From: a virus
Lineage: Duplodnaviria; Caudoviricetes
DNA: 64,000 nucleotides
Virus record (IMG/VR): IMGVR_UViG_3300032227_000318
Location: 32,001-96,000 of that record
Direction: 5' to 3' (one strand)
Shown here: positions 21,208-52,263 of the stretch, piece by piece
How the letters are laid out: each line of letters begins with the position of its first letter
Position numbering within the stretch: position 1 is the first letter of the stretch
Notes under the pieces: generated by a model
Database searches by the model: none
What the model saw: only the letters and a program-made list of their open reading frames with translations
What the model was told of the DNA's origin: nothing
Translations under genes and position numbers: made by a program

Positions 21208-23130
21208 TCATATCTCGCATCCTCCAACGACACACGCGAGTTCTTGAGAACCAGTGGTGTTATCACGCTTCTCATACTTAGCTAACATTGTCCAGTCAAT
21301 GTTCTTCGGCATCTTAGCTGCAAGTGCTTCATATTCTTCCTTCGTGCAGTCTTGATAAGGAGCCTGCTGATAAACGTGATCGGAAAACGGCAAGAATGAA
21401 ACGCCAGACATTTCATCAAAGTGATTGTAGACCCATGCACCAACTTCTGGCCACTCATCTTCCTTCACTGAGATAGTAACAGAAGGCTTATGCTCACAGA
21501 AATGACGCTGATACATCAACCACAATTCAAGCTGTTCAATAGCGGTCATATCAGTGCGGAACACAGCATTGTCAGGAGACTTCTGCGGGAATGAGAACAC
21601 ATAGGTATGCTCTGGCTTCATCACATCGTCTTCACATGGGAAACCCATCTCCTTCATCATTACTGCAAGGGGGTCTTTCTTGTCAGCACGAACAGTTCTA
21701 ATATAATAAGGGCTATGGCGGGCATGAATGCCAGAAGCAGAGTCGACCAACTGAGAGACGGTCCCAGAAGGCTTGACACAAGTAATAGCAGCAGAAACAG
21801 GAATACCAAGTTTTGCAGCCCAAGTCTTATTAGTTCTAACGGCTTCATTGCGAAGTTCCTCCAATAGATCAGGTAATTCAATCTCAATAGTCTTACCATT
21901 AGTATATTCATTGTCCATAATACCAGTCAGAGATACACCAAGCAAACGCTCTTCGGCACAGTTTTCTTTCCACTTCTTACTCAGGTATTTGAAGTTGGTA
22001 AGTGTGGATTGGAATGTACCAAGTATAGTTGCGAGTTTGACCTTGCGCTTGAGTGATTCCGGTGTATCATCTCCTCTGACGACCACCTCTGTAAGATTAC
22101 AGAACTCGCGTGAACGGAGAATGATTTCAGAACATGGGTTGGTGCCGAAATCGTGTTCAGGATCACGGCGTCCGAACTTCTCAGCCTGCTTCTTAGACGC
22201 AGTTCTACTAAAAATGCCGCGTTCGCCAGAGCGTGACTCATAGAGGGAAAGCCACTCACGCATGAAAAGGCCCACATCAGGCTTCTCTTTAGCAACGAAA
22301 GAGTTGTTAGCAAGAGCGCGTTGGACATTTTCTTTCCACCAGTCACCAGACTTTGCAACGCGCATTCTATCATCACTAAGGTCAGAAAGAGAAATAAGCG
22401 CGGATCTACGAACGCCGCCGACAACCACAATCTCAGCGATCTTACAAACGATGTCATGTGCCTCCAATGTAGTTAAACGACGACCAGCAGCCTTCTTGAA
22501 TGTTGCAACCACGAACTTGAATAGATCAGTTAGAGGTTGCGGCCCAGAAGCACGGCCACCAAATGTCTTGAGTGGTGCGCCAGCAGGACGAACCTTTGAA
22601 ACGTCCCACTTAGGAATTTGACCAGCATACAGAAGATGCACTAGTTCTTTAAAGGCCTTTGCCCAACCAAGCTTTGAGTCTGCAACCTGAATAGTTGTTT
22701 CTGTTGTGAACATTTCATCAGGAACAATAGGCAATTGCTCTACATATTTTGATTCAACAGAGAAACCAACACCAGTACCATTCATAAGAATGTAAAGAAT
22801 TTCATCAAATGAACGTGGGCTGTCAACAGCAACATACGAACAGTTATAGCCAGCAACGTTCTCACGCTTGAGTGCTTCACCAGCAGTCATCAAGCAACGC
22901 ATTGACGGCATGATTTCAAGATTAAGAACAGCATCTTCTAGCTGCTTACGCTCTTCAGTGGTGATAGTATATCCAGTAATTTCTTTGACATGCTCATCAA
23001 AGAAATTGAAATAACGGGCGACTGTTTCGTCCCAGTTCTCTCTACGATTTTCATCCCACAGCCAACGGGCATAACGAGACTTATGAATGAACTCTTGATA
23101 CAGAGACGGTAACATATTACTGCCTGACAT
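21208..23130 (-). CDS. nrdJ: Class II (B12-dependent) ribonucleotide reductase
   Basis: YNCS, GTGVGFS, GGRASGP, TNPCSEI, TCVKPSGTVSQL, C-terminal C....C. Confidence 0.92.
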   Translation of the reverse strand: MSGSNMLPSLYQEFIHKSRYARWLWDENRRENWDETVARYFNFFDEHVKEITGYTITTEERKQLEDAVLNLEIMPSMRCLMTAGEALKRENVAGYNCSYVAVDSPRSFDEILYILMNGTGVGFSVESKYVEQLPIVPDEMFTTETTIQVADSKLGWAKAFKELVHLLYAGQIPKWDVSKVRPAGAPLKTFGGRASGPQPLTDLFKFVVATFKKAAGRRLTTLEAHDIVCKIAEIVVVGGVRRSALISLSDLSDDRMRVAKSGDWWKENVQRALANNSFVAKEKPDVGLFMREWLSLYESRSGERGIFSRTASKKQAEKFGRRDPEHDFGTNPCSEIILRSREFCNLTEVVVRGDDTPESLKRKVKLATILGTFQSTLTNFKYLSKKWKENCAEERLLGVSLTGIMDNEYTNGKTIEIELPDLLEELRNEAVRTNKTWAAKLGIPVSAAITCVKPSGTVSQLVDSASGIHARHSPYYIRTVRADKKDPLAVMMKEMGFPCEDDVMKPEHTYVFSFPQKSPDNAVFRTDMTAIEQLELWLMYQRHFCEHKPSVTISVKEDEWPEVGAWVYNHFDEMSGVSFLPFSDHVYQQAPYQDCTKEEYEALAAKMPKNIDWTMLAKYEKRDNTTGSQELACVVGGCEI

Positions 23131-31890: not shown

Positions 31891-32328
31891 TTATTGTTTA
31901 CCAAACTGTTCAATCTCGGGTGTTATGGTAACTTTCTGACCTTTTTTCTTTGTGTCAGTAGCACCTAAATCATCTGTTTCTTCTTCAGCAACAGGTCTGG
32001 ATGTATTACCATAAGTAGACGGTCTTCTCTTTTGATTTCCGTGGGCTTCATAACCCATTCTATCAGATGGCAACTTAGATATATTGCCTACTGTTTGTTT
32101 TGGATTATGTCTAGCACCTACACCCTGCTGACGGAAAACAGATGCTTCTGCCATTCTATGAAGATAGTCATTTGGTGAAGCATCTTTCTTATCATAAGGA
32201 TCAGCAATATGTACAGGTTTGAATTGCTGCTTCTTCAAATATTTTGCATTAGCGGTTTTTGGATCCTGTTCTTGTAGCCTCTTTTTACGGAGAACTTTTA
32301 TCATTTCTGCGAGTTGTTTGTTATTCAT
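31891..32328 (-). CDS. Hypothetical protein
   Basis: ORF coupled to upstream gene. Confidence 0.55.
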   Translation of the reverse strand: MNNKQLAEMIKVLRKKRLQEQDPKTANAKYLKKQQFKPVHIADPYDKKDASPNDYLHRMAEASVFRQQGVGARHNPKQTVGNISKLPSDRMGYEAHGNQKRRPSTYGNTSRPVAEEETDDLGATDTKKKGQKVTITPEIEQFGKQ

Positions 32329-41786: not shown

Positions 41787-42526
41787 TACTCTTCTTTGAG
41801 ATTGAGTTTGATCTTTGTTTGGTGATCTATTGGACACTTTCGTCCGTCTGGATACACACCTTGAAAGTAATGCTTTTCCCATGTCTTATCTATAGGTGTA
41901 TTTGGATTTTCTAACATGAGTCTATCAAAATCACCTCTACTCTTTGACCACTGCTCATAGTTCTTGGCCTCTTCTTCATGCAACTCTAGAGGTCTAACGA
42001 TAGAACGAAACTCTTCAGTATACTTTCTTTCCATTGGATAGAAAAACAAGAATGGTTCAAAAGGTTCAAATACAATCTCTCTGTCTGGCTCAGTCATTAT
42101 CCAGTTCATAGTGAATGTAGCTGGATTCCAATCAGTCTCAACAATACCTGTTAGTGGTGCAATGCCTCTCTTCGGATTGTTTGGTGTTCCTGATACATAC
42201 AGATTTACATTTTCTGGTGTACGAACAATAAAATCAGGATGAAAAGTAACTACACCACCGCCAAAGTGTGAGACACATATTCTATCACCGCCTTCGATAG
42301 TAATATCATCAACGTGGTTGCCGCCATTCCAATTTATCTTAATGCGCTGAGAAGTCGATACTTCAAAACCATTTAGATTTGCGATTGTAAGAGGAAGACA
42401 ACGGTACGCATATTTGTCTTGACTATTTTCCATCCATTCACGTTCACGAACACCCTTTCGGACATGAATAGTGCTTTGCCGATGTATACGATATAGAATA
42501 ATATCTTTCATAATATAACCTTTCAA
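41786..42526 (-). CDS. Conserved protein, dUTPase-like fold (DUF6065-like)
   Basis: AYRCLPLTIAN, SHFGGG, LTGIVETDW...FTMNW. Confidence 0.7.
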   Translation of the reverse strand: MKGYIMKDIILYRIHRQSTIHVRKGVREREWMENSQDKYAYRCLPLTIANLNGFEVSTSQRIKINWNGGNHVDDITIEGGDRICVSHFGGGVVTFHPDFIVRTPENVNLYVSGTPNNPKRGIAPLTGIVETDWNPATFTMNWIMTEPDREIVFEPFEPFLFFYPMERKYTEEFRSIVRPLELHEEEAKNYEQWSKSRGDFDRLMLENPNTPIDKTWEKHYFQGVYPDGRKCPIDHQTKIKLNLKEE

Positions 42527-42532
42527 ATCAAA

Positions 42533-42976
42533 TTATGACTTCTTCCCCATAGAGGCCTTGATCATCCAGTTCAGCTTTGAATGCGCTGTGATACGGTCTT
42601 GAAGGAAATTAGACAGTGCATAGACCTTTTGTTCTTCGGCCATCTCATAGGTCTCAACAACCACGTTCATTAAATTCTCATTGCAAGTAAATAGGTTACT
42701 CAACATGAAAGCTGCGGTTGGAATCTTTTCGTCTTCAGATATGATTGATAGCTCCTTCATACGTGTTAACGTCTGAGGCGCAAAAGCATCCAACTGACGG
42801 ATATGTTCCGCTAGTGGATCTACTGCTCCCTGATAGTCTTCATAGATAGTGGCAAAGAATTCATGGAGCTGAGGAAAATCAGAACCAATAACGTTCCAGT
42901 GGTATGCTTGTGCTTTTAGTCCTGCTGCAAAGGTTGATGCTAAAACAACCTTCAACTTTTCTACTAGTTCTTCCAT
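42533..42976 (-). CDS. dps: Dps / ferritin-like protein
   Basis: HWNV.G.DF.QLH..F..IYE..D.LAEHIR, H.K..WM. Confidence 0.9.
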   Translation of the reverse strand: MEELVEKLKVVLASTFAAGLKAQAYHWNVIGSDFPQLHEFFATIYEDYQGAVDPLAEHIRQLDAFAPQTLTRMKELSIISEDEKIPTAAFMLSNLFTCNENLMNVVVETYEMAEEQKVYALSNFLQDRITAHSKLNWMIKASMGKKS

Positions 42977-43007
42977 TATATTCTCCTAATATACATCTTT
43001 ATATTAA

Positions 43008-43099
43008 TGGCGGAAGGTAAGGGATTTGAACCCTTGGTACCTCTTGCGAAGTACGACGGTTTAGCAAACCGCTGCTTTCGACCGCTCAGCCAACCTTCC
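43008..43099 (-). tRNA. tRNA-Ser(GCT)
   Basis: Cloverleaf, long variable arm, CCA. Confidence 0.95.
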
Positions 43100-43100
43100 T

Positions 43101-43550
43101 TTATTCTGTAATCTCTATGTATGTATTATACTTGCCATACTCATTTACGATGTGATACAACCAACGTGCATTCTGAGGGCTAAGACGAACACAACCGTGT
43201 GATGCAGGCCGACCAAGCTTCTTTACTTCTGTTGTTGCGTGAATTGCATAACCGCCGTGAAAGAAGATAGAGTGCGGCATCGGTGCATTGTCATACTTAG
43301 ATGAATAGTGCATCTTCTTTACAAGATATGGTTGATACACACCAATCGGTGTACGATATCCCTTGCGTCCAGTAGAAACATCCCACTCATAATAATCTGT
43401 AGGAGTCTCTACATACATTTTCTGGTCGGACTTATCAACGCGAATGATCACTTCATGCTCACCAAGAGGTTCAACGCCAGCTTTAACACCTGTAGCCAGC
43501 ATAAAGATTGCCGCGGCCATCACAGCCAACATAACAAAAAACTTAGTCAT
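43101..43550 (-). CDS. L,D-transpeptidase (YkuD family)
   Basis: Signal peptide, VSTG..TP.G, AIH...ASHGCVRL. Confidence 0.9.
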   Translation of the reverse strand: MTKFFVMLAVMAAAIFMLATGVKAGVEPLGEHEVIIRVDKSDQKMYVETPTDYYEWDVSTGRKGYRTPIGVYQPYLVKKMHYSSKYDNAPMPHSIFFHGGYAIHATTEVKKLGRPASHGCVRLSPQNARWLYHIVNEYGKYNTYIEITE

Positions 43551-44048
43551 TTATTCTACCTTCGTTTGCGGTAAATGTTGAATAGCGTCTTTGTAACGGT
43601 CAGCACAGTAAGATGCTGCCCACGCATTTGGCTTCACTAGCGGCACAATGTTACACATACCACGAATGTAGCCAACAGCTTCATTTATAACACAGCTTGA
43701 ACCATGCTTCATGTCTGGATTAATGTCAAGATGGATTTCAGTTTCACGATCTTCTAGAACGTCATAAAGATCCATGTATAGTTGAGCCGTCTTCATCACT
43801 TCATTCATCAGACGCATACGAGGCTTATCTTTCTGCTGATCATAGTCACGTTCACGGACAATGCCACCAAATACCTTACAACCGTTCTTGCCGTTCTTAT
43901 GAACAACGACAACGTTGATGTAGTCGGCATGCCAAACACCATCAATCTGAAAACGTTCAGAGTCGCCACCTAGATATATCTTTGTTTCGGGAGTTTGTTC
44001 TTGAATGAACGCACGAACTTCGTCCAGGTTCATGTTCTTTCTGATCAT
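43551..44048 (-). CDS. RNase H-like YkuK family protein
   Basis: IYLGGDS, RLMNEV, EIHLDIN, KPNAWAASYCAD. Confidence 0.8.
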   Translation of the reverse strand: MIRKNMNLDEVRAFIQEQTPETKIYLGGDSERFQIDGVWHADYINVVVVHKNGKNGCKVFGGIVRERDYDQQKDKPRMRLMNEVMKTAQLYMDLYDVLEDRETEIHLDINPDMKHGSSCVINEAVGYIRGMCNIVPLVKPNAWAASYCADRYKDAIQHLPQTKVE

Positions 44049-44059
44049 TGTTAAGTTCC

Positions 44060-44443
44060 TTAAAAGACCTTCTTTGCTATCGATGAATAACTTTTTGGAT
44101 GAACTCCATCAGCACTAGCGAACGAAGATAAGTATACAACACCATCGCCATGTTGTCTAGCGATATTTAGAGCAATCTTTCTTGCTTTTGCGTTGTTATT
44201 GGAAAGAATCCAAATAACTTTACCAGATATTTTGTTTCTGAGGATATTAAGGTATTTGGAAAAATCTGCATTACCATCATTTGATCCGAGAGATATGACA
44301 GTAGTTTTTGAGGAAGGAATATATTTGTAAGAAACTACAAAGTTTTTGCTGTTTATGCCGACCTTTGCTATAGTCTTACACTGCGGAGTAACAGAACCAA
44401 CGCCAACAGCAATACTGTCGCCCAATATTAAACAATCAATCAT
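44060..44443 (-). CDS. SGNH/GDSL-like hydrolase
   Basis: GDSIA, SLGSND, DGVHP. Confidence 0.75.
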   Translation of the reverse strand: MIDCLILGDSIAVGVGSVTPQCKTIAKVGINSKNFVVSYKYIPSSKTTVISLGSNDGNADFSKYLNILRNKISGKVIWILSNNNAKARKIALNIARQHGDGVVYLSSFASADGVHPKSYSSIAKKVF

Positions 44444-44457
44444 TGTTAAGTTCCTAT
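44441..44457. repeat. 17-bp inverted-repeat partner of 49733-49749; 15-nt direct copy at 44046-44060
   Basis: CATTGTTAAGTTCCTAT vs ATAGGAACTTAACAATG. Confidence 0.9.
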
Positions 44458-44459
44458 AA

Positions 44460-44533
44460 TGGTGCCTCTATCCAGAATCGAACTGGAGCCAATCCCCTAC
44501 CAAAGGATTGTTCTACCACTATACTATAGAGGC
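44460..44533 (-). tRNA. tRNA-Thr(GGT)
   Basis: Cloverleaf, CCA. Confidence 0.93.
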
Positions 44534-44539
44534 AGTGAT

Positions 44540-44616
44540 TGGTGCGCCTGGAGAGACTCGAACTCCCAACATCCGGTTTCTAAGACCGGCGCCTCTACCA
44601 ATTGGACTACAAGCGC
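44540..44616 (-). tRNA. tRNA-Leu(TAG), short variable loop
   Basis: CCGGT-CTTAGAA-ACCGG, CCA. Confidence 0.9.
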
Positions 44617-44621
44617 GTTAA

Positions 44622-44697
44622 TGGTGCGAGATGAGAGGGTCGAACTCCCGACATCCTGCGTGTAAAACAGGCGCTACTACCACTGAGCTAATCTCGC
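44622..44697 (-). tRNA. tRNA-Val(TAC)
   Basis: Cloverleaf, CCA. Confidence 0.93.
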
Positions 44698-44704
44698 GTT
44701 AATT

Positions 44705-44778
44705 TGGAGCGGGTAGCGGGAATCGAACCCGCGCACTCTCCTTGGCAAGGAGAAAGGCTACCATTACATCATACCAGC
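44705..44778 (-). tRNA. tRNA-Gly(GCC)
   Basis: Cloverleaf, U73, CCA. Confidence 0.93.
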
Positions 44779-44796
44779 TTACTCTATATTTATAAT

Positions 44797-44872
44797 TGGT
44801 GCGTCATGGTAGAATCGAACTACCTTTTCCGGCTTATGAGACCAGCGGGATGTCCATCACCCCCCAAGACGC
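44797..44872 (-). tRNA. tRNA with CAT anticodon (Met or Ile2), atypical D arm
   Basis: CTGGT-CTCATAA-GCCGG, T arm, CCA. Confidence 0.8.
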
Positions 44873-44996
44873 ATTTACTTATGATTCTTGCCAAACCAAG
44901 ATATTTCTTTTATTCTTGGTCCCATTGCTATCGCAGAAGCAAGACATGCTTTATATATGGCGTCATATAGTTCTTTGCTCATGTTTATTTCCTAAA

Positions 44997-45074
44997 TGGT
45001 GCAAGGTCTTGGAATCGAACCAAGTTCTTCCGCTCTTCAGGCGGACGCTGAATTACCAAACTAGCTCACCTTGC
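44997..45074 (-). tRNA. tRNA-Phe(GAA), 5' end overlapped by endonuclease ORF
   Basis: TCCGC-CTGAAGA-GCGGA, CCA. Confidence 0.92.
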
Positions 45075-45688
45075 ATTATTCTATTATACTCGTTTTTCTC
45101 AATAATTACAATCTTTTTTTCTGGGTGCTGTTTCAGAACTGCTTCCATCTTTCTCTTATCATCGCCCCACCAGTAACCTTTTATCTCAAGGAATATATCT
45201 TGATCTATCAATTGTAGATCAGGCGTGTACGATTTTTTCTTGCCGTCCAATTCATATTCCCAAACATCTCTATGAACAGCAGGTTTATACCAATCAATTC
45301 CTAACTCATCAAGTTTCTTGGCTATGTTTAGTTCCCAAGTGCCTTGTAGTTTCTGTCCTTTATATTCAAACCATTTACATTTACCGCCACGATTCTTTAC
45401 ACTCTGTTCAACAGACAATCTTTTACGAGCTTCTTCCCCCATTCTTGTCGGAACAAATGAACCATTAGCTATCTTAGCCTGTATTGTCTGGCTGTTTTTC
45501 TCAGCAGTTCTTCGTATTTCTTCAGAAGTTTCTTTAGTCAGCCCTTTTCTGTGGCTAGGACGACCTTTAGATTTGCTTCCTGTTTTTTGTCCGTGAGCAA
45601 CGCCGTCTTTTGAATGCGATCTCCAAACATGAGCAACCTTAGCTTTATCGCTCTTTAGTTCTTTGTTACATATTGGGCAATAGATCAT
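45053..45688 (-). CDS. PD-(D/E)XK (TnsA-like) homing endonuclease with N-terminal zinc finger
   Basis: CPIC..H...H; QGTWE, YTPD...LEIKGYW; TATAAATA at 45705-45712. Confidence 0.8.
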   Translation of the reverse strand: MIYCPICNKELKSDKAKVAHVWRSHSKDGVAHGQKTGSKSKGRPSHRKGLTKETSEEIRRTAEKNSQTIQAKIANGSFVPTRMGEEARKRLSVEQSVKNRGGKCKWFEYKGQKLQGTWELNIAKKLDELGIDWYKPAVHRDVWEYELDGKKKSYTPDLQLIDQDIFLEIKGYWWGDDKRKMEAVLKQHPEKKIVIIEKNEYNRIMQGELVW

Positions 45689-45715
45689 AGTTCCTCCTAT
45701 GATCTATTTATATAA

Positions 45716-45750
45716 CAGGCGTATGTACGCACCAGCTATACCAAGGCAGC
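45716..45750 (-). pseudogene. 5'-half tRNA remnant truncated in the anticodon loop
   Basis: GCTGCCT-TG-GTAT-AGCTGGTGC-GTAC-A-TACGC-CTG then late promoter. Confidence 0.75.
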
Positions 45751-45756
45751 AGTTAT

Positions 45757-45903
45757 TCAATCACGAAGCAACTGAGGAGCTGATTCCGTCAAGTTCTTCT
45801 TTTCGTATTCTGCAAGTTTAATAGAGTATTGTTCGTTTGTCAACCCATGCCAACCGATACACTTACCAGTCGGACTTCTTCCACAACCACAATCTTTAGA
45901 CAT
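45757..45903 (-). CDS. CDGSH-like Fe-S microprotein (48 aa, not in ORF track)
   Basis: CGCGRSPTGKCIGWH 3Cys-1His pattern; GAGG RBS. Confidence 0.7.
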   Translation of the reverse strand: MSKDCGCGRSPTGKCIGWHGLTNEQYSIKLAEYEKKNLTESAPQLLRD

Positions 45904-45923
45904 TTATAACCTCATTCGTTAAA

Positions 45924-46011
45924 TGGCGGAAGGTGTAGGATTCGAACCCACGGAACCTTTCGGTTCTTCGCATTTCAAGTGCGATGCAATAGACCACTCT
46001 ACCAACCTTCC
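45924..46011 (-). tRNA. tRNA-Ser(TGA)
   Basis: Cloverleaf, long variable arm, CCA. Confidence 0.95.
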
Positions 46012-46019
46012 AATTTCGA

Positions 46020-46137
46020 TGCGATTTCTTAAAGTGGTTACGCCCTCCACTATTGTGATAAACGAGAGTTTCCAGTCAAGTACAGTCCACTCACAAACCT
46101 CTAGCTGCGGGATGACGGAACGCAGTACTTGCCGCCA
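46020..46137 (-). ncRNA. Candidate structured ncRNA
   Basis: After TTGACA-17-TAATAT promoter; stems CAAGTAC/GTACTTG, CTGCG/CGCAG, AGTGG/CCACT. Confidence 0.45.
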
Positions 46138-46176
46138 TGATGTATATATTACACTAAATCCCGCATATTGTCAAGT

Positions 46177-46536
46177 CTACCTTTTCTTCTTCCCTAAGAT
46201 TTCAACCTTGACTGTGCAAATTCCACCGCAACCAATCTTTCTAGCTGCTGCTCTTGATAGGTCTAAATGTCTGCCTCTAATGAATGGGCCCCTATCATTT
46301 ATTACTACTATTACTGATCTTCCTTTGTGTGTAACCCTAAGTCTTGTGCCAAAGGGTAGTGTCTTATGTGCTGCTGTTAAAGCATTTGGATTGAATCTTT
46401 GCCCGCTTGCAGTGATTTTATTTCTACTACATTCACCAGGCTTAGCGCAATCGTACCATGATGCTTTCATAGTAGACGCATAACTGGGCGCTGCAATTAA
46501 AAATAATGCAGCTAAGGTTGTTACTAATAGTTTCAT
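46177..46536 (-). CDS. RlpA-like double-psi beta-barrel protein
   Basis: ASWY, TASG, TAAHKTLPFGT, INDRGPF, DLSRAAA. Confidence 0.9.
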   Translation of the reverse strand: MKLLVTTLAALFLIAAPSYASTMKASWYDCAKPGECSRNKITASGQRFNPNALTAAHKTLPFGTRLRVTHKGRSVIVVINDRGPFIRGRHLDLSRAAARKIGCGGICTVKVEILGKKKR

Positions 46537-46552
46537 TATAGTTTTCCTTTAG

Positions 46553-46646
46553 TGGAGCATCTGACAGGATTCGAACCTGCATCGGATATTTCTATCCACG
46601 TCCAGTTACCTTACTCTCCGTTCGTAGCGGAGGGGGCTACAGATGC
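46553..46646 (-). tRNA. Rearranged tRNA-Arg(ACG)-like RNA
   Basis: Acceptor GCATCTG/CAGATGC, CTCCG-CTACGAA-CGGAG, T arm, CCA; no canonical D arm. Confidence 0.75.
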
Positions 46647-46652
46647 ATAGTT

Positions 46653-46727
46653 TGGAGGGGCTAACCAGATTTGAACTGATACCTCAAGGATTTGCAATCC
46701 CGTGCATTACCGTTTTGCTATAGCCCC
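46653..46727 (-). tRNA. tRNA-Cys(GCA)
   Basis: Cloverleaf, CCA. Confidence 0.93.
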
Positions 46728-46731
46728 GTAT

Positions 46732-46805
46732 TGGCTGCTCATCATGGATTCGAACCACAATACCCTGAGTCAGAGTCAGGAGTCCTACCGTTAGACGAAT
46801 GAGCA
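46732..46805 (-). tRNA. tRNA-Gln(CTG)
   Basis: Cloverleaf, CCA. Confidence 0.93.
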
Positions 46806-46810
46806 ACAAA

Positions 46811-46884
46811 TGGTACTGCCTAGTGGAATCGAACCACCGTATTGCGTTCCACAGACGCACGTTCTACCATTGAACTAAGACAGC
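46811..46884 (-). tRNA. tRNA-His(GTG), no G-1
   Basis: Cloverleaf, G1.U72, A73, CCA. Confidence 0.93.
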
Positions 46885-46889
46885 ATGAT

Positions 46890-46966
46890 TGGTTGCGGGT
46901 GTGAGTGCTGCCCTCACTATCTCCGGCTTATGAGACCGGCGGCTTATCTACCTTGCCCTACCCACT
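46890..46966 (-). tRNA. Initiator-like tRNA-Met(CAT), atypical T loop
   Basis: 1:72 mismatch, CCCGCAACCA end, T loop GGCAGCA. Confidence 0.75.
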
Positions 46967-47009
46967 TTATTTCTTATAGATTCTGAAATCTTTTTCTTTG
47001 TTAATGAAT

Positions 47010-47084
47010 TGGTAGAGCATACGGGAGTCGAACCCGTCTCTCATCCTTGAAAGGGATGTGACCTAACCGATAGTCGAATGCTCC
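47010..47084 (-). tRNA. tRNA-Glu(TTC)
   Basis: Cloverleaf, CCA. Confidence 0.93.
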
Positions 47085-47085
47085 A

Positions 47086-47160
47086 TGGAGAACCCTCTGG
47101 GATTCGAACCCAGGACAGACGGATTAAAAGCCCGCTACTCTACCACTGAGTTAAGGGTTC
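47086..47160 (-). tRNA. tRNA-Lys(TTT)
   Basis: Cloverleaf, CCA. Confidence 0.93.
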
Positions 47161-47165
47161 ATTGT

Positions 47166-47239
47166 TGGCTGGGAGACTAGGATTCGAACCTAGATAGCAG
47201 GAATCAAAATCCTGCGTCCTACCTTTAGACGATCTCCCA
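47166..47239 (-). tRNA. tRNA-Gln(TTG)
   Basis: Cloverleaf, CCA. Confidence 0.93.
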
Positions 47240-47245
47240 ATGAAA

Positions 47246-47319
47246 TGGTAGTTCCTACTGGTTTCGATCCAGTGATGCGCGGTTATCGGCCGCGAGTTTT
47301 ACCATTAAACTAAGGAACC
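47246..47319 (-). tRNA. tRNA-Ile(GAT), 5' end overlapped by HNH ORF
   Basis: CGCGG-CCGATAA-CCGCG, CCA. Confidence 0.9.
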
Positions 47320-47787
47320 ATATTTCTTTTTTCTATCTCTGCCTCGCCATGTGGTAGTTTGACTGTGGCAGTTTGGACAAAGACATTCTAAATTTTCTCT
47401 ATTGTTATTAGTTCTAATGCCGTCTTTGTGTTCAAGTTCAAGTGTTAATGGCTGATCTAACCATCGGTCATTACCACATCTATTACACTTGAAATTCTGT
47501 TCTTCTAAGACTTTTAGACGAATGGCCGCTCTGCTTTTGAAATCCGTGGTATCTCTATTCTTTCTTAGAATAGCATAATGCTCACTGAAAGCTACATTCG
47601 GCCCTATTTTCACACCTTTGTTCCAAGCAGTTCTCTCGCCTGTCTTAAAGGCGTGATTAGGATCAAAGTCAATACCCCTAATCTTTTTCTTTATAGGTCC
47701 GATACAAGCATCCACATGTCTATCAAAGTTATTTACGGTGATGTTTCTATCACATTTATCACAGTGTTTAGTTGGCTTTTTACTCAT
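47305..47787 (-). CDS. HNH homing endonuclease
   Basis: CNRCG, LELEHKDG...NN..ENLECLCPNCHSQT; ACTAAATA at 47811-47818. Confidence 0.88.
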   Translation of the reverse strand: MSKKPTKHCDKCDRNITVNNFDRHVDACIGPIKKKIRGIDFDPNHAFKTGERTAWNKGVKIGPNVAFSEHYAILRKNRDTTDFKSRAAIRLKVLEEQNFKCNRCGNDRWLDQPLTLELEHKDGIRTNNNRENLECLCPNCHSQTTTWRGRDRKKKYGSLV

Positions 47788-47820
47788 AGTTGTCTCCATA
47801 GTAGCACATCTATTTAGTAA

Positions 47821-47852
47821 AAGCGCCTACTCTACCATTGAGCTACAAGCCA
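47821..47852 (-). pseudogene. 5'-half tRNA remnant (Ile-like) truncated at the anticodon
   Basis: TGGCTTG-TA-GCTC-AATGGTA-GAGT-A-GGCGC-TT then late promoter. Confidence 0.8.
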
Positions 47853-47859
47853 ATATATT

Positions 47860-47975
47860 CCGTACACCTTGCAGGTTTAGCCCTTTCGCGAACTGAGTCA
47901 GCAATCCTGCATTCGTAAGCTTTCCCTCATGTTGGGCTTACTAGGTCTCCCCTGTCTTATCTAGAAAGACGGGTA
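47860..47975 (-). ncRNA. Candidate structured ncRNA
   Basis: Stems GTCTT/AAGAC, GTAAGC/GCTTAC, TGCAGG/CCTGCA, ACCT/AGGT. Confidence 0.45.
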
Positions 47976-47978
47976 ATT

Positions 47979-48064
47979 TGGTGGGTGAGAAAGGATTCGA
48001 ACCTTCTAAGTCATAGACAACGGATTTACAGTCCGCCACAACACGCCGTCGTTGCCGCTCACCC
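47979..48064 (-). tRNA. tRNA-Tyr(GTA)
   Basis: Cloverleaf, long variable arm, CCA. Confidence 0.93.
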
Positions 48065-48073
48065 GAACAAGTA

Positions 48074-48250
48074 TTATTCTTTTTCTGGCCACTGAACTAT
48101 TAAGTTTGGGTCAGTAACCTTTACATCATTAATACGAATGCCACCCTGTTCAATCAATCGTCTAGCTGCACTCTTGCTTTTTGCAAATCCAGCAGCAATA
48201 ACTATGTCGACTAACGAAACAGTTCTTGGTACAGTTATTTCAGGTAACAT
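48074..48250 (-). CDS. Stand-alone S4 RNA-binding domain resembling the TyrRS C-terminus (58 aa, not in ORF track)
   Basis: SLVDIVIAAGFAKSKSAARRLIEQGGIRINDVKVTD; AGGAG RBS. Confidence 0.8.
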   Translation of the reverse strand: MLPEITVPRTVSLVDIVIAAGFAKSKSAARRLIEQGGIRINDVKVTDPNLIVQWPEKE

Positions 48251-48341
48251 TGTATTCTCCTAAAAAGCGCCAACCTCACAGTTATTCGGCTGGCTGTTTG
48301 ACATTCATGACGCGCATCACTGCTACGTAGTCAGATCAAAT

Positions 48342-48424
48342 TGGTGCCAAGGGAGGGAATCGAACCCCCGATGTTTGTATGCCTCCTTACAAGAGAGGTG
48401 CTGTCGCCGCTGAGCCACCTTGGC
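48342..48424 (-). tRNA. tRNA-Thr(TGT), extended variable loop
   Basis: CCTCT-CTTGTAA-GGAGG, CCA; G1 is the last base of the HNH stop codon. Confidence 0.88.
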
Positions 48425-48840
48425 TAATAACTTTTACCTTCAGCATATCGCTGTCTTCTATAGTGTCTGCCATTACCTTTATTTGCGCCTTTGTAAGTTG
48501 GCGTTTGTGAATGGCAGTTTGGACAAATCAAACATAGATTTTCTATGTTGTTATTCTCACTGTTGCCGTCTTTATGTTCTAAATCAAATACGATTGATTT
48601 ATTGTTCCATTCAGTTATACCACAAGTATAGCATTTGTTGCCGTATGTGTCAATGATATATTTTTTTATCTGTCTTTTACCAGGAACAACACCCTCTTCA
48701 AGCCAATTTTTTATCTTGTCTTTACGAGTATATTCATGTTGACACTTTTGTGAACAATATTTACCAGTAGATGAATATACATTTCTTACTGTGTGTTCTT
48801 TATTACAATTTTGACAGACTATGATTCCTGATTTACCCAT
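48424..48840 (-). CDS. HNH homing endonuclease
   Basis: KYCSQKCQ, CYTCG, DLEHKDGN..NN..NLCLICPNCHSQT; TATAAATA at 48867-48874. Confidence 0.88.
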   Translation of the reverse strand: MGKSGIIVCQNCNKEHTVRNVYSSTGKYCSQKCQHEYTRKDKIKNWLEEGVVPGKRQIKKYIIDTYGNKCYTCGITEWNNKSIVFDLEHKDGNSENNNIENLCLICPNCHSQTPTYKGANKGNGRHYRRQRYAEGKSY

Positions 48841-48900
48841 GTTATACCTCTATGTTTTGGTATAACTATTTATAATACACAAATGTTCTACCATTTGGAT

Positions 48901-48975
48901 TGGTGGAGGATAACGGAATCGAACCGTTTTCTCTGCCGTGCAAAGGCAGCGTTTCCCCAATAGCACTGATCCCCC
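48901..48975 (-). tRNA. tRNA-Ala(TGC)
   Basis: Cloverleaf, G3.U70, CCA. Confidence 0.9.
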
Positions 48976-48980
48976 GTTAT

Positions 48981-49094
48981 TTACATGCACAAATCTTCAT
49001 AAAGGACAGTATGTTTCCTGTGTGTGGCAAGATCACCATCACGATCATCATTGTACCACAGCGTGGTAAAAAAGTCAACTATAATATCAAACAT
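48981..49094 (-). CDS. Micropeptide (37 aa)
   Basis: MFDIIVDFFTTLWYNDDRDGDLATHRKHTVLYEDLCM; AAGGA RBS; internal TTGACT-17-TACAAT promoter. Confidence 0.5.
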   Translation of the reverse strand: MFDIIVDFFTTLWYNDDRDGDLATHRKHTVLYEDLCM

Positions 49095-49111
49095 TCTATT
49101 TCCTTTTGTAT

Positions 49112-49185
49112 TGGCACCAGTGCAAGGATTCGAACCCTGACAAGCAGTTTTGGAGGCTGCCGTGCTACCGTTACACTACACTGAT
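49112..49185 (-). tRNA. tRNA-Trp(CCA)
   Basis: Cloverleaf, CCA. Confidence 0.92.
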
Positions 49186-49191
49186 ATGAAT

Positions 49192-49268
49192 TGGTCGGAG
49201 TGGTAGGATTCGAACCCACGACCCTTCGCTCCCAAAGCGAATGCTCTACCAGACTGAGCCACACTCCG
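49192..49268 (-). tRNA. tRNA-Pro(TGG)
   Basis: Cloverleaf, CCA. Confidence 0.95.
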
Positions 49269-49274
49269 TTATAC

Positions 49275-49348
49275 TGGCGACCTATGCGAGACTCAAACTC
49301 GCTACACCTCTTAGACAGAGAGGTGTGATATCCATTCACTAATAGGCC
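49275..49348 (-). tRNA. tRNA-Asp(GTC)
   Basis: Cloverleaf, CCA. Confidence 0.92.
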
Positions 49349-49354
49349 TTGAAT

Positions 49355-49429
49355 TGGAGAACCAGGTGAGAATTGAACTCACGACACGCGGGTTAAGAGG
49401 TCGCTACTCTACCACTGAGTTACTGGTCC
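49355..49429 (-). tRNA. tRNA-Lys(CTT)
   Basis: Cloverleaf with two anticodon-stem mismatches, CCA. Confidence 0.88.
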
Positions 49430-49435
49430 TTGAAT

Positions 49436-49511
49436 TGGCTGGATAGCTTGGATTCGAACCAAGGACATCCTCGTTAACAGCGAGGCGCTCTACCGCTGGA
49501 GCTACTATCCA
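49436..49511 (-). tRNA. tRNA-Asn(GTT)
   Basis: Cloverleaf, CCA. Confidence 0.93.
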
Positions 49512-49513
49512 AT

Positions 49514-49655
49514 ATTCTACTTTCGTCAGTAGTCACATCATCATATGAGATTCGAACTCATGCCTGCGCCGCTTCTGCGGCACCGTGCTTCCCCTACACC
49601 AATGAATGACTTGTCGCGGTGGCCACCTGCTAGTGACTACTGACGAAAGTAGAAT
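49514..49655 (-). ncRNA. Anticodon-less tRNA-like domain inside a 23-bp perfect stem
   Basis: IR 49514-49536/49633-49655; D arm, 7-bp arm with AGAA loop, T arm ATGAG-TTCGAAT-CTCAT. Confidence 0.7.
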
Positions 49656-49801
49656 GTGAGGCTGTGCTGAGTCACAGACACTCACTGGATATTTCGCTAC
49701 TCAGTGCGCCTTTGAGAAGAGCAAAGGTACTCATAGGAACTTAACAATGTCAATCAGCGACCGCGTCTATCTTGCCCGCGCGGCTGGGAAACTCTCTCTT
49801 A

Positions 49802-49837
49802 CATACTGGATATAGTGTCTCAAGGTGCTGGTTTCAA
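49802..49837 (-). promoter_or_regulatory. Repeated early promoter driving the tRNA array
   Basis: TTGAAA-N17-TATATCCAGTATG. Confidence 0.75.
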
Positions 49838-49889
49838 GTCTTTTCTTATTCTTTTTTCGTATATCTGCTATGCACTAGACACAACCCTG

Positions 49890-49928
49890 AAAATGAAAGA
49901 ACCCCGAAACTTTCGCTCCGGGGTTCTA
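49890..49928 (-). terminator. Intrinsic terminator (attenuator)
   Basis: AGAACCCCG/CGGGGTTCT stem then TTCATTTT. Confidence 0.85.
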
Positions 49929-49950
49929 AGAAACTAAGTCTATCTAAGAC

Positions 49951-50031
49951 TTAATACATAGAACCCCCTACACCTGCCCATGATGGCTGGCGTGTCTCTT
50001 GATTAATCGTGAAGGGGCAATAACGTTTCAT
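49951..50031 (-). CDS. Putative attenuator leader peptide MKRYCPFTINQETRQPSWAGVGGSMY
   Basis: 22 distinct codons in a row; contains antiterminator GGGGGTTCTA (49959-49968). Confidence 0.75.
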   Translation of the reverse strand: MKRYCPFTINQETRQPSWAGVGGSMY

Positions 50032-50055
50032 TTCCGTCTTTCTTAAACTGTACTC

Positions 50056-50096
50056 TATTTAGTATACATCCTAGCAGGATTTTATTAGGTTGTCAA
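50056..50096 (-). promoter_or_regulatory. Tandem sigma70-type and late promoters of the leader
   Basis: TTGACA-17-TAGGAT and ACTAAATA. Confidence 0.7.
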
Positions 50097-50105
50097 CTTT
50101 TTTTT

Positions 50106-50182
50106 TGGTGCGAAAGGTGGGACTTGAACCCACAGAACTCGGTTTTTGAGACCGATACGTATACCTATTCCGTCACTCTCGC
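50106..50182 (-). tRNA. tRNA-Leu(CAA), short variable loop
   Basis: TCGGT-CTCAAAA-ACCGA, CCA. Confidence 0.9.
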
Positions 50183-50186
50183 TTAT

Positions 50187-50278
50187 TGGTCGGCGTGCTT
50201 GGATTCGAACCAAGTCAAGAACACTCATCTAGTGCTAAAGGGATTATAAGGCCCTCCCGTGTACCAACACCCACGCCG
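50187..50278 (-). tRNA. Atypical tRNA with TAT anticodon (Ile-AUA reader?)
   Basis: CGGCGTG/CACGCCG acceptor, CTTATAA loop, minimal D loop, long variable arm, CCA. Confidence 0.75.
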
Positions 50279-50282
50279 TTAT

Positions 50283-50732
50283 TTACATTACAGAAAAGAA
50301 TCCAAGTGTGGCATCATTATATTTCTTGTCTCTTTTTCTATCCCAACCACGCTTTGCTCTTTCACTTCTGTCTTGTGATGTAAGTTTTGCTGCTGACGCT
50401 TTACCACCAATTGAGCCAAACTTATCTTTCACTTTATCATAACCTTTTCTGGCATTCTCTTTGGTAAAGCCACCAATGCCACCTTTTCTCATATTATATG
50501 TCTTATTAGTGTTAAAGTCAACAGTTAGTTCGGCTTCTAGCTTGTATGCTTCATCTTTCGATTCAGTGATGAATAAGACTTCTTTTTTGAAGTTGTCTTT
50601 TCCATATTTTCTTAATGCTTCTTCAATAGCACGACCTGAACCAAAATATACATCACTTGGATTGTTTGTTTTATGAACACCAATATAGTGTTTATTGTTG
50701 ATTAGATTTATTGTTTTATATACAGTATACAT
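50283..50732 (-). CDS. GIY-YIG (Seg-like) homing endonuclease
   Basis: YTVYKTIN...YIGVH, YFGSG, YGKDNFKKEVL, YN...GG; TATAAATA at 50754-50761. Confidence 0.85.
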   Translation of the reverse strand: MYTVYKTINLINNKHYIGVHKTNNPSDVYFGSGRAIEEALRKYGKDNFKKEVLFITESKDEAYKLEAELTVDFNTNKTYNMRKGGIGGFTKENARKGYDKVKDKFGSIGGKASAAKLTSQDRSERAKRGWDRKRDKKYNDATLGFFSVM

Positions 50733-50767
50733 CCATTATCTCCTCAGTGGATGTATTTATAGTAAAA

Positions 50768-50843
50768 TGGTGCGACCACCAGGACTCGAACCCGGAACCA
50801 GACAGGTATGAACTGTCAGCTCTAACCGTTGAGCTATAGTCGC
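50768..50843 (-). tRNA. tRNA with CAT anticodon (Met or Ile2)
   Basis: GACAG-TTCATAC-CTGTC, CCA. Confidence 0.88.
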
Positions 50844-50847
50844 TTAT

Positions 50848-50934
50848 TGGTGCGGGCGGTGGGACTCGAACCCACAACGTTTCTATTGTAGCAAATTTTA
50901 AGTCTGCCGCGGCTCACCATTACGCCACGCCCGC
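50848..50934 (-). tRNA. tRNA-Leu(TAA)
   Basis: Cloverleaf, long variable arm, CCA. Confidence 0.93.
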
Positions 50935-50942
50935 TTTATTGT

Positions 50943-51209
50943 TTAGTCCTTCATTGCGCCGGACATGAAGCCCTTGCGAGGATCACCCCACTCAGTCTCA
51001 GCACGAACACGAACATATCGCGCGCGAGTGTCGGCCGTATTAGGATTAGGCACAGTGACCCACGGGTTCTTACCCTTCAACCAGGCTTTCTGCAAGAGTG
51101 TCCACTTATCAATAGCGGAACGTTCACGCTTGATAGCCTTTGACAGGCTGCGATTTGCTTCACGCTCACCCTTAGAGGTGTAAGCAGACTTAGACTTCGG
51201 TGCAGACAT
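50943..51209 (-). CDS. Hypothetical basic protein
   Basis: TSKGER, AWLKGKNPWVTVPNPN. Confidence 0.65.
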   Translation of the reverse strand: MSAPKSKSAYTSKGEREANRSLSKAIKRERSAIDKWTLLQKAWLKGKNPWVTVPNPNTADTRARYVRVRAETEWGDPRKGFMSGAMKD

Positions 51210-51233
51210 TCACTTTCTCCATTATACTATAAT

Positions 51234-51309
51234 TGGCGACCCCTGCACGACTCGAACGTGCGACACCCTGTTTAGAAGACAGGTACTCTATCCACTGAGC
51301 TAAGGGGCC
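51234..51309 (-). tRNA. tRNA-Arg(TCT)
   Basis: Cloverleaf, CCA. Confidence 0.93.
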
Positions 51310-51744
51310 ATTGAAACTTATTTATGCTACTTCGTAGGCAAATCCCTTGACATAGCAACCATCTAGAAACCGATGGCCAGTCTTATGGGCATCATCACTA
51401 TCTACGAAGAACTGTTCCCAGATACAATCATCATTCTCAAAACAGTATAGCATGAATCCTACACGGTTGTCAAGAATATAAAAATCTACATCATAAGACC
51501 TAACCATTATGCGACCTCACGAAGCTTAATGCCAGTGATTCGTTCATCCGCAATGAGAGAAACGGGATACTGAGGATTACCTGTGTGCAAACGAAAAGTA
51601 CCAACGGGATCATGTCGCTCACTTGCTACTACCTTTCCAGATTTGATAGACACATTATTCATCACACCATACTTATAATGTGTGCGAACATGGATCATAT
51701 CGCCAACTTTGATTTTCCACTTAGTCTTGATCATCTTGTATATC

Positions 51745-52263
51745 TTACTTGGTATTGATCGCCTTGTCAAGCTTGAAAAGCTTACCGTTCATGTACATCT
51801 TACCATTCTTGAACTTGATCTTTTCTGACTGGAGCATCACCTGATAGAACAGGTAGAGCGAACGGTCACGACCATAAGCCTCAATTTCCCAAGGCCAGTT
51901 GAAGTAGTCTTCCATAGAGTTAGTCAGTTTGAAAGTCTTACCCTGCCACTTTGCAGTGATCAACTCATTAGACAACTCACCCCTTGCGTACTGCTTCACA
52001 TGCACCATTTCATGCGCGAGGCACTGGAGCATTTTGTACCGCTGCATTCCAGGTCTGATACCAATCTCAAAGGACTTAGGGCGCCGTTCAGAATCGACAG
52101 GGTAACAGCCACCCTCATTGCGCCCCTGATCCTCAAGCCGAATTTCAATATCAAGCTTTTCTGTAAGTCTGGTGCCCATGATATAGTGGGCAAAGAAAGC
52201 AGCAGCGAACTTGAGTTCAGCCTTGCACATAGCCTTGGTTCTGCCGACGATATTAATATCCAT
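51745..52263 (-). CDS. Zinc metallopeptidase-like protein
   Basis: LAHEMVHVKQY, PWEIEAY. Confidence 0.8.
   Translation of the reverse strand: MDINIVGRTKAMCKAELKFAAAFFAHYIMGTRLTEKLDIEIRLEDQGRNEGGCYPVDSERRPKSFEIGIRPGMQRYKMLQCLAHEMVHVKQYARGELSNELITAKWQGKTFKLTNSMEDYFNWPWEIEAYGRDRSLYLFYQVMLQSEKIKFKNGKMYMNGKLFKLDKAINTK

Follow-up and report, generated by a model that had tools for sequence, protein, structure and literature searches.

Organization of the tRNA block

The window analyzed here, a 64,000-nucleotide (nt) stretch of DNA, spans positions 32,001 to 96,000 of IMG/VR record IMGVR_UViG_3300032227_000318, a virus contig of 110,481 bp that is rated 67% complete. On sequence grounds the virus is an uncultured T4-like phage, marked as such by a homologue of the translational repressor RegA (PF01818; E value, 3.9e-46) that is encoded outside the window, at contig positions 109313 to 109678 on the minus strand. 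DNA runs that hold parts of the region carry freshwater or lake metagenome labels. ARAGORN called 28 tRNA genes and a transfer-messenger RNA (tmRNA) gene, every one on the minus strand. Our subject is the leader of the main tRNA unit and a short conserved sequence within it that is exactly complementary to the translation start site directly behind the last tRNA of the block (Table 1). The initial annotation of the locus, made without database searches, had described the tRNA array as enclosed by a 17-bp long-range stem. A total of 22 tRNA genes do lie between the two complementary segments (the leader and trailer arms), but six lie outside them—five upstream (50106-51309) and one downstream (43008-43099)—and promoter-like sites are found inside.

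Three copies of the sequence are present, one in the leader and two behind the block; the positions and exact complementarity reported for them were confirmed, and the contig holds no others. The final ATG in each downstream copy opens an open reading frame (ORF), and the complementarity spans AGGA, spacer, and ATG for the two ORFs. The trailer had been taken for the ribosome-binding site and start codon of an SGNH gene, and it does cover the Shine-Dalgarno (SD) sequence and AUG of an ORF of 127 amino acids (aa). The name SGNH given to that ORF was not confirmed: no significant Pfam family was found for it, and only an N-terminal GDS motif is visible. The 15-nt copy covers the start of a 165-aa ORF matching the RNaseH_like family (Pfam PF04308; E value, 9.5e-17), in agreement with its earlier description as an RNase H-like gene.

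Table 1. Leader elements, sequence copies, and bordering tRNA genes, in window coordinates
Feature	Position	Strand	Basis and remarks
Terminator-like hairpin	49898..49927	-	13 pairs with T tail; ends the upstream unit; kept in relatives with type A, B, and C leaders
Putative sigma70-like promoter	49808..49836	-	TTGAAA-17-TATATC; read from sequence and alignment
Hairpin P0	49755..49786	-	CAGC/CGCG ... CGCG/GCUG; centroid fold; the first 4 core nt form its 3' strand
Conserved 24-nt core	49735..49758	-	GCTGATTGACATTGTTAAGTTCCT; near-identical across ~15 leaders
Leader arm, 17 nt	49749-49733	-	CATTGTTAAGTTCCTAT; exact reverse complement of trailer arm 1
Hairpin P1	49709..49727	-	Centroid fold; directly 3' of the core
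Structured leader domain	49654..49711	-	Two covarying helices; 13-sequence alignment; common to types A, B, and C
Perfect 23-bp stem	49514..49655	-	Surrounds a tRNA-like insert (49538-49608); longest inverted repeat of the genome; just before tRNA-Asn
tRNA-Asn(GTT)	49436..49511	-	ARAGORN; first tRNA behind the leader
tRNA-Thr(GGT)	44460..44533	-	Last tRNA of the block; 2 nt before trailer arm 1
Trailer arm 1	44441..44457	-	ATAGGAACTTAACAATG; SD and AUG of 127-aa ORF 44443-44060
Trailer arm 2, 15 nt	44046..44060	-	AGGAACTTAACAATG; SD and AUG of 165-aa ORF 44048-43551

Strength of the complementarity

The shared 15-mer occurs exactly three times in the window, for which shuffled sequences give an expectation of 0.23 matches at ≤2 mismatches, and exactly three times in the whole contig at ≤1 mismatch. 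By itself, a 17-nt inverted pair could arise by chance in this genome, which also contains an 18-nt pair 25.9 kb apart and a second 17-nt pair 35.6 kb apart; the significance of the present pair lies in the third copy and in conservation in relatives. These further long-range repeats of 17 to 18 nt would suit a chance inverted repeat without significance, an explanation that we find hardly credible given three copies against 0.23 expected and arms that co-occur in 11 distinct relatives with diverged flanks, a conservation that already contradicts chance.

The two start sites differ from the 17-mer at 0 and 2 positions, against a mode of 8 to 10 mismatches among 71 crudely called starts. In an RNAduplex scan of both strands of the contig, no sense-strand target of the leader segment (below, the seed) outranked the first start site, which scored -36.4 kcal/mol against a background mean of -13.2 kcal/mol (standard deviation, 3.4 kcal/mol). 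The exact match gives 17 Watson-Crick pairs; the arms alone form 19 pairs, one G-U among them, at -26.5 kcal/mol, and the leader duplex with the second start site reaches -23.5 kcal/mol. The next-closest start site, GGAGGAACTTCGCAATG (21846-21860, minus strand), precedes a 62-aa ORF, has four mismatches to the 17-mer, and may be a weaker target.

Architecture of the leader RNA

The earlier placement of the upstream arm in a leader is borne out by its surroundings: a terminator-like hairpin closes the preceding unit, a putative sigma70-like promoter follows at a position kept in relatives, and the arm begins ~50 nt past the likely start point. The promoter hexamers vary among relatives (TTGACT-17-TATATT and TTGACT-17-TATTAT), and our promoter scan passed over the site in the window, the -10 hexamer of which ends in C. 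The fold of 49802-49512 (z score, -3.2) consists of P0, an unpaired core, P1, a compact domain, and the 23-bp stem. Hairpin P0 is kept in the alignment of leader types A, B, and C, with GCUGC/GCAGC instead in type B. The pairing of P1 is likewise kept, and its stems differ by leader type (CCUUUG/CAAAGG, CCCUUG/CAAGGG, CCUAGU/ACUAGG, and GAGAUAAC/GUUAUCUC).

The compact domain contains two helices that covary. Helix 8-13/40-45 (alignment columns) is 100% paired with two pairs changed on both sides, and helix 35-39/46-50 is 96.9% paired with three such changes, compared to 28 to 40% paired in slid controls for both helices; three phylogenetic types contribute to this covariation, and the independent events among them are few. 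As predicted, the helix order a, b, a', b' without linkers implies either a tight pseudoknot or two alternative states. Rfam gave no match over 49654-49802 at E values up to 10, and the leader domain, with five covarying pairs, is a candidate for a new RNA motif.

Between this domain and tRNA-Asn stands the 23-bp stem. Its tRNA-like insert scores 29.7 bits with the Rfam tRNA model, which is at threshold, and was not called by ARAGORN. Nearly all relatives have an uninterrupted stem of 10 to 25 bp at this position before tRNA-Asn, with other sequences and inserts, and in most of them, too, the first called tRNA behind the leader is tRNA-Asn. Identity of the stem element with Y RNA/YrlA (Ro) was considered and is not supported, as the 67%-complete contig encodes no TROVE domain. 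Two RNA runs contain short assembled contigs of relatives, which cannot show RNA ends; positions 49588-49808 are uncovered in one run and little covered in the other.

Conservation of the leader core

Relatives were gathered through a search with the RNaseH-like protein, which yielded 80 loci from viral contigs, and DNA-pattern scans added more. The core GCTGATTKACATTGTTAAGTTCCT was found in ~15 distinct leaders of uncultured T4-like phages, once per contig, between flanks that are unrelated on both sides and sort into at least five unrelated types, A to E. Its 16-mer ACATTGTTAAGTTCCT (49750-49735) is the same in nearly all of these leaders, and the fully invariant stretch coincides with the stretch complementary to the start site. 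Two positions (W and K) vary in the 5' part of the core. One variant recurs, a T-to-A change (CATTGTAAAGTTCCT) seen in type C and in one E-like leader; the other variants are two single changes, at the last CCT.

The initial annotation had also noted that the leader arm overlaps a boxA-like sequence. The gammaproteobacterial boxA consensus is GYTCTTTAANA, positions 4 and 6 of which have been mutated to kill function (PMC5725501). The sequence in question, GCTGATTGACA, agrees at 8/11 positions with this consensus, which may not be that of the host; the three departures are C to G at position 4, T to A at position 5, and A to G/T/A at position 8. The overlap also falls in the more variable 5' part of the core, and both points weaken the boxA reading.

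Outside this group of phages, the leader was unmatched in 50,697 cultured-phage records, and a megablast of the region matched tRNA fragments only. The closest cultured relatives of the RNaseH-like protein (identity, ≤55%) are encoded by phages of 146 to 253 kb that infect Stenotrophomonas, Synechococcus, Xanthomonas, and Rhizobium. Distant relatives, whose RNaseH-like proteins are 54 to 78% identical, have neither the core nor an alternative leader/trailer pair. The exact core 19-mer has 11 matches in 185,579 bacterial species genomes, for which we estimate 10 to 15 by chance. All 11 lie in unrelated, apparently coding contexts, and none points to a bacterial counterpart such as a host rRNA or tRNA leader.

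Two other roles for the core were considered and set aside. A gene read on the plus strand from the leader copy (as ribosome-binding site and ATG) would be a 22-aa ORF in the window, and many relatives read ATG TAA there; the CAT within the core is invariant although this ORF is unconserved. A promoter within the core (TTGACA) has no conserved -10 hexamer behind it in any leader type.

Start sites behind the tRNA block

Among 15 distinct leader-bearing loci with downstream DNA covered, 11 have a partner with zero to two changes 4.0 to 9.4 kb downstream. A 167-kb relative rated 100% complete contains the motif exactly twice, in the leader and at the start site. The joint conservation of the arms that the initial annotation had required is seen in these 11 loci; four lineages keep the core only. 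Two independently conserved 15- to 17-mers that are exact reverse complements, with an invariant block that is itself the complementary stretch, argue for a real relationship and not a coincidence.

In every relative that has it, the complementary start site immediately follows the 3' (CCA) end of a tRNA, which is tRNA-Thr(GGT) in most cases and tRNA-Leu in relative L006. The genes behind it vary: the RNaseH-like gene, the 127-aa ORF, a gene for a 113-aa YspA/SLOG protein (PF10686), and a 218-aa ORF. The best reverse-complement match to the upstream region is 8 to 10 nt at other tRNA-to-ORF junctions of these loci and 11 to 17 nt at junctions with the motif. In relative L016 (4141-4660), the same tRNA-Thr and start site lead straight into the RNaseH-like gene, without the 127-aa ORF. 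The 127-aa ORF of the window (44046-44457, minus strand) is bounded by 15-nt direct repeats of the start site. Since L016 does not have this ORF, the direct repeat is best read as a duplication of the start site upon insertion of the 127-aa ORF, which looks like a cassette gained or lost by recombination at the start-site sequence.

Could the three copies instead be a DNA-level site, recognized by a DNA-binding protein or nuclease or providing homology for recombination, with no role in RNA? To such a site orientation would be irrelevant, and the repeats bounding a gene that is missing in L016 are as expected from short-homology recombination. The array is also rich in homing-endonuclease-like ORFs: two HNH ORFs and one GIY-YIG ORF with weak, subthreshold Pfam matches interrupt the tRNA block, and an endonuclease-I-like ORF matches Phage_endo_I above threshold. 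We nevertheless judge a DNA-level site to be very improbable: the site lacks symmetry, three intact copies would leave the phage's own genome open to cutting by such a nuclease, the copies keep the same relative orientation in all relatives with no inversion seen, the downstream copies are not near promoters, and the leader copy sits within a structured, covarying RNA context. Sites of the IHF or invertase type gave no match by eye, with no dedicated search made.

Substitutions in the partner are confined to the four bases before ATG, where AATA, AGCA, AATG, AACG, and GATA replace AACA. All are transitions (A to G or C to T) that keep G-U pairs, and the GGAACTT of the partner never changes, though it is dispensable for SD function.

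Possible pairing within one precursor or in trans

The initial annotation had inferred an rRNA-operon-like stem cut by RNase III, antisense repression of the two protein genes, or both. If leader and trailer paired within one precursor, they would form an rRNA-like stalk around the tRNA block, and the layout has features that fit: in many relatives one arm immediately precedes the first tRNA region and the other lies 2 nt behind the last tRNA, the helix would have 17 to 19 pairs, and no strong terminator-like site was found on the sense strand between the arms. Leader-trailer helices of rRNA provide a precedent (PMC10250234). We consider such a stalk improbable. Its span would be 4.0 to 9.4 kb and vary with the cargo, six tRNAs lie outside the arms, a helix of 17 to 19 bp is rather short for RNase III, and no covariation between the arms was seen. 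A stalk over 4 to 9 kb is also unlikely because tRNA processing and the long hairpin would free the leader before the trailer is made; from what is established of tRNA processing, cotranscriptional maturation of tRNA 5' ends should detach it early. Promoters inside the block would in addition give trailers without a leader: of 12 promoter-like sites scoring ≥10/12 in 42500-52000, all on the sense strand, 7 lie between the arms (10 to 11 of 12). As a substrate for RNase III or other processing, the local hairpin before tRNA-Asn would be a more natural candidate than the long-range stem, and the internal promoters, tRNA processing, and this hairpin together weaken the rRNA-style reading.

We tentatively favor pairing that takes place mostly in trans, between the exposed seed of the leader RNA and the start site behind the tRNAs. 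In this reading, the upstream arm is the exposed, invariant center of a 24-nt element in a structured leader of ~290 nt that heads the main tRNA unit and runs, in order, from promoter through P0, single-stranded core, P1, putatively pseudoknotted domain, and long hairpin to tRNA-Asn. The downstream arm is a translation-initiation region conserved directly behind the last tRNA of the block in this phage clade. Cleavage at the long hairpin or processing by RNase P would probably release the leader, which could then anneal, mainly in trans, to the 15 to 19 nt that include the SD sequence and AUG of whichever ORF or ORFs come first behind the block. Annealing would block ribosome entry and could create a duplex cleavable by RNase III, such that the cargo genes would be repressed during activity of the array promoter.

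Our confidence in this pairing stays below even, since some phages retain the core with no partner and a search for compensatory change found none. Several observations weigh against it. Lineages L020-22, L025, L028, and L047 keep the invariant core and have no complementary start site, and one partnerless lineage is without the site across 136.5 kb of a genome rated 81% complete. In a distant relative without a core across ~60 kb, a related start site, AGGAAACTAACAATG, stands behind a tRNA. Covariation between the arms in relatives, which the initial annotation had proposed as a check, did not appear: no compensatory (both-sides) change was found, and the leader arm hardly varies. Scans for such changes, anchored on the flanking domain or on the core with free central bases, brought out only the T-to-A variant. 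A true compensatory partner for the CATTGTAAAGTTCCT seed would be a post-tRNA start site reading AGGAACTTTACAATG; one contig with this variant has no partner in 8.5 kb, and the other ends 400 nt past the leader. In the partners, the variable spacer consists of A and C bases, for which any transition is G-U compatible, so that the wobble-only pattern is weak evidence (P, ~0.06 to 0.2 by our own estimate). Finally, the core is unpaired in the centroid fold, yet its mean unpaired probability is only 0.45 to 0.5.

Presence of the core without a partner in four lineages suggests that it has another, probably primary, role. Start-site pairing would then probably be an added use of the seed, the primary partner of which would be another RNA or a protein. 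More doubtful than pairing as such is the proposal that the leader is a processed trans-acting riboregulator—a "5' external spacer" small RNA (sRNA) of the tRNA operon—whose 16-nt seed silences AGGAACUUAACAAUG starts and perhaps a host mRNA too. A host mRNA target would account for retention of the seed in phages that have no target of their own. In the same proposal, the pseudoknotted domain beside the seed, with two mutually exclusive covarying helices that are both conserved, could serve as a switch for seed exposure.

The core as a possible protein or transcription signal

The partnerless lineages also speak for a different account, in which the core is a leader signal for a protein or the transcription machinery and the complementarity has no pairing role but comes from common descent, for example, as an old inverted copy of a portable junction sequence. 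Such a signal could be an anti-Rho or processive antitermination element, a site of the nut or boxA kind, or a site for a RegA-type RNA-binding repressor. We regard this account as possible but doubtful.

As in nut sites, a single-stranded core lies ~50 nt from the promoter with a hairpin behind it. Long untranslated transcripts of rrn operons need protection from Rho, and by the same reasoning a little-translated array of 4 to 9 kb would need it. The start-site motif behaves as a portable linker as well, being found before four genes and behind at least two tRNA types (Thr and Leu) and duplicated around the 127-aa ORF. On the other hand, exact reverse complementarity by descent requires that both 15- to 17-mers stayed unchanged for unrelated reasons, the invariant block is the complementary stretch and not the boxA-like stretch, the boxA consensus is missed at 3/11 positions, C4 included, and the loops of P1 are unconserved, unlike boxB.

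For RegA, the relevant points are that the genome encodes a homologue, which may bind unstructured start regions, and that the core shares AUUGUUA.GU with the T4 consensus obtained by systematic evolution of ligands by exponential enrichment (SELEX), aaAAUUGUUAUGUAA (PMC3014915). The agreement extends to 10/15 positions of a consensus that reflects T4 specificity and may differ for the RegA of this phage, and we treat the likeness as only a lead. A single protein could not read both the core and the start sites, because the start sites are the complement of the core.

Relation to known systems

The arrangement resembles rRNA helices, tRNA-spacer regulators, and start masking in RNA phages and fully matches the defining features of none; Rfam, the cultured phages, and the literature searched gave nothing comparable. 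As in the leader-trailer and boxA/Nus system of Escherichia coli rrn operons, a leader segment downstream of the promoter is complementary to sequence just behind stable RNA, complementary leader and trailer flank mature RNAs, the operon is long and untranslated, and a single-stranded conserved leader element lies beside hairpins. Unlike in that system, the arms are 4 to 9 kb apart with ~22 tRNAs, promoter-like sites, and protein genes in between, and the downstream arm is itself a ribosome-binding site. In addition, the leader departs from the boxA consensus, no covariation between the arms was seen, and a separate long local hairpin offers a candidate processing site.

The 3' external transcribed spacer (3'ETS) of glyW-cysT-leuZ and sRNAs processed from leaders offer a closer parallel to the favored pairing in trans, as a by-product of a tRNA precursor would pair through a conserved exposed seed. 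In keeping with a riboregulator, the SD sequence and start codon are covered, and the conserved seed is unpaired in the centroid fold with covarying helices flanking it. The known case is an E. coli 3' spacer that sponges sRNAs, whereas here a putative phage 5' leader would target the phage's own downstream start sites. The replicase start of MS2/Qbeta and the hok fold-back also have a distant upstream sequence complementary to a downstream SD sequence and AUG, and their translation depends on RNA refolding or processing. They span hundreds to ~1,400 nt within one mRNA; in our phage the span is kilobases of tRNA genes, which makes action in trans more plausible.

T4 RegA operators share with this locus the T4-like setting with a RegA homologue, unstructured start regions, and AUUGUUA.GU, but the core is not a start site and the likeness is partial. 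Lambda nut sites share a single-stranded conserved box with a hairpin a few nucleotides later, early in a long transcript; here, the hairpin loop is unconserved, the box sequence is different, and no N-like protein was identified.

Phage tRNA arrays are commonly viewed as passive clusters of genes. If the favored pairing is correct, the array transcript would also carry regulatory information, tRNA supply would be linked to neighboring cargo genes or host targets, and a phage example would join the small set of regulators derived from tRNA-operon spacers. Although the phages are uncultured, the short and sharply bounded element lends itself to reporter tests in a heterologous host.

Other genes and sequences of the region

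Cargo ORFs adjoining or within the tRNA block (42533-43550 and 46177-46536, minus strand) encode a YkuD L,D-transpeptidase (PF03734), a ferritin-like protein (PF00210), and a lytic-transglycosylase-like protein with a DPBB domain (PF03330), the last being a further ORF of the block itself. In type B phages, a near-copy of the motif with one to three mismatches occurs inside a 229-aa ORF and encodes the conserved residues Q/E-E-L-S/N-N-R. Where this ORF stands behind tRNA-Thr in relatives (L028:14750-14764, L025:14110-14124, and L018:10019-10033), the near-copy, AGGAACTTAACAATA, is in frame, has one or two mismatches, and encodes Q-E-L-N/S-N-R; it is probably a coding coincidence. The phages that carry it are those in which the usual start-site partner is missing or altered. 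The tmRNA gene called by ARAGORN lies at 1678-2064 on the minus strand and encodes the tag peptide ANDNFIASKAYALAA.

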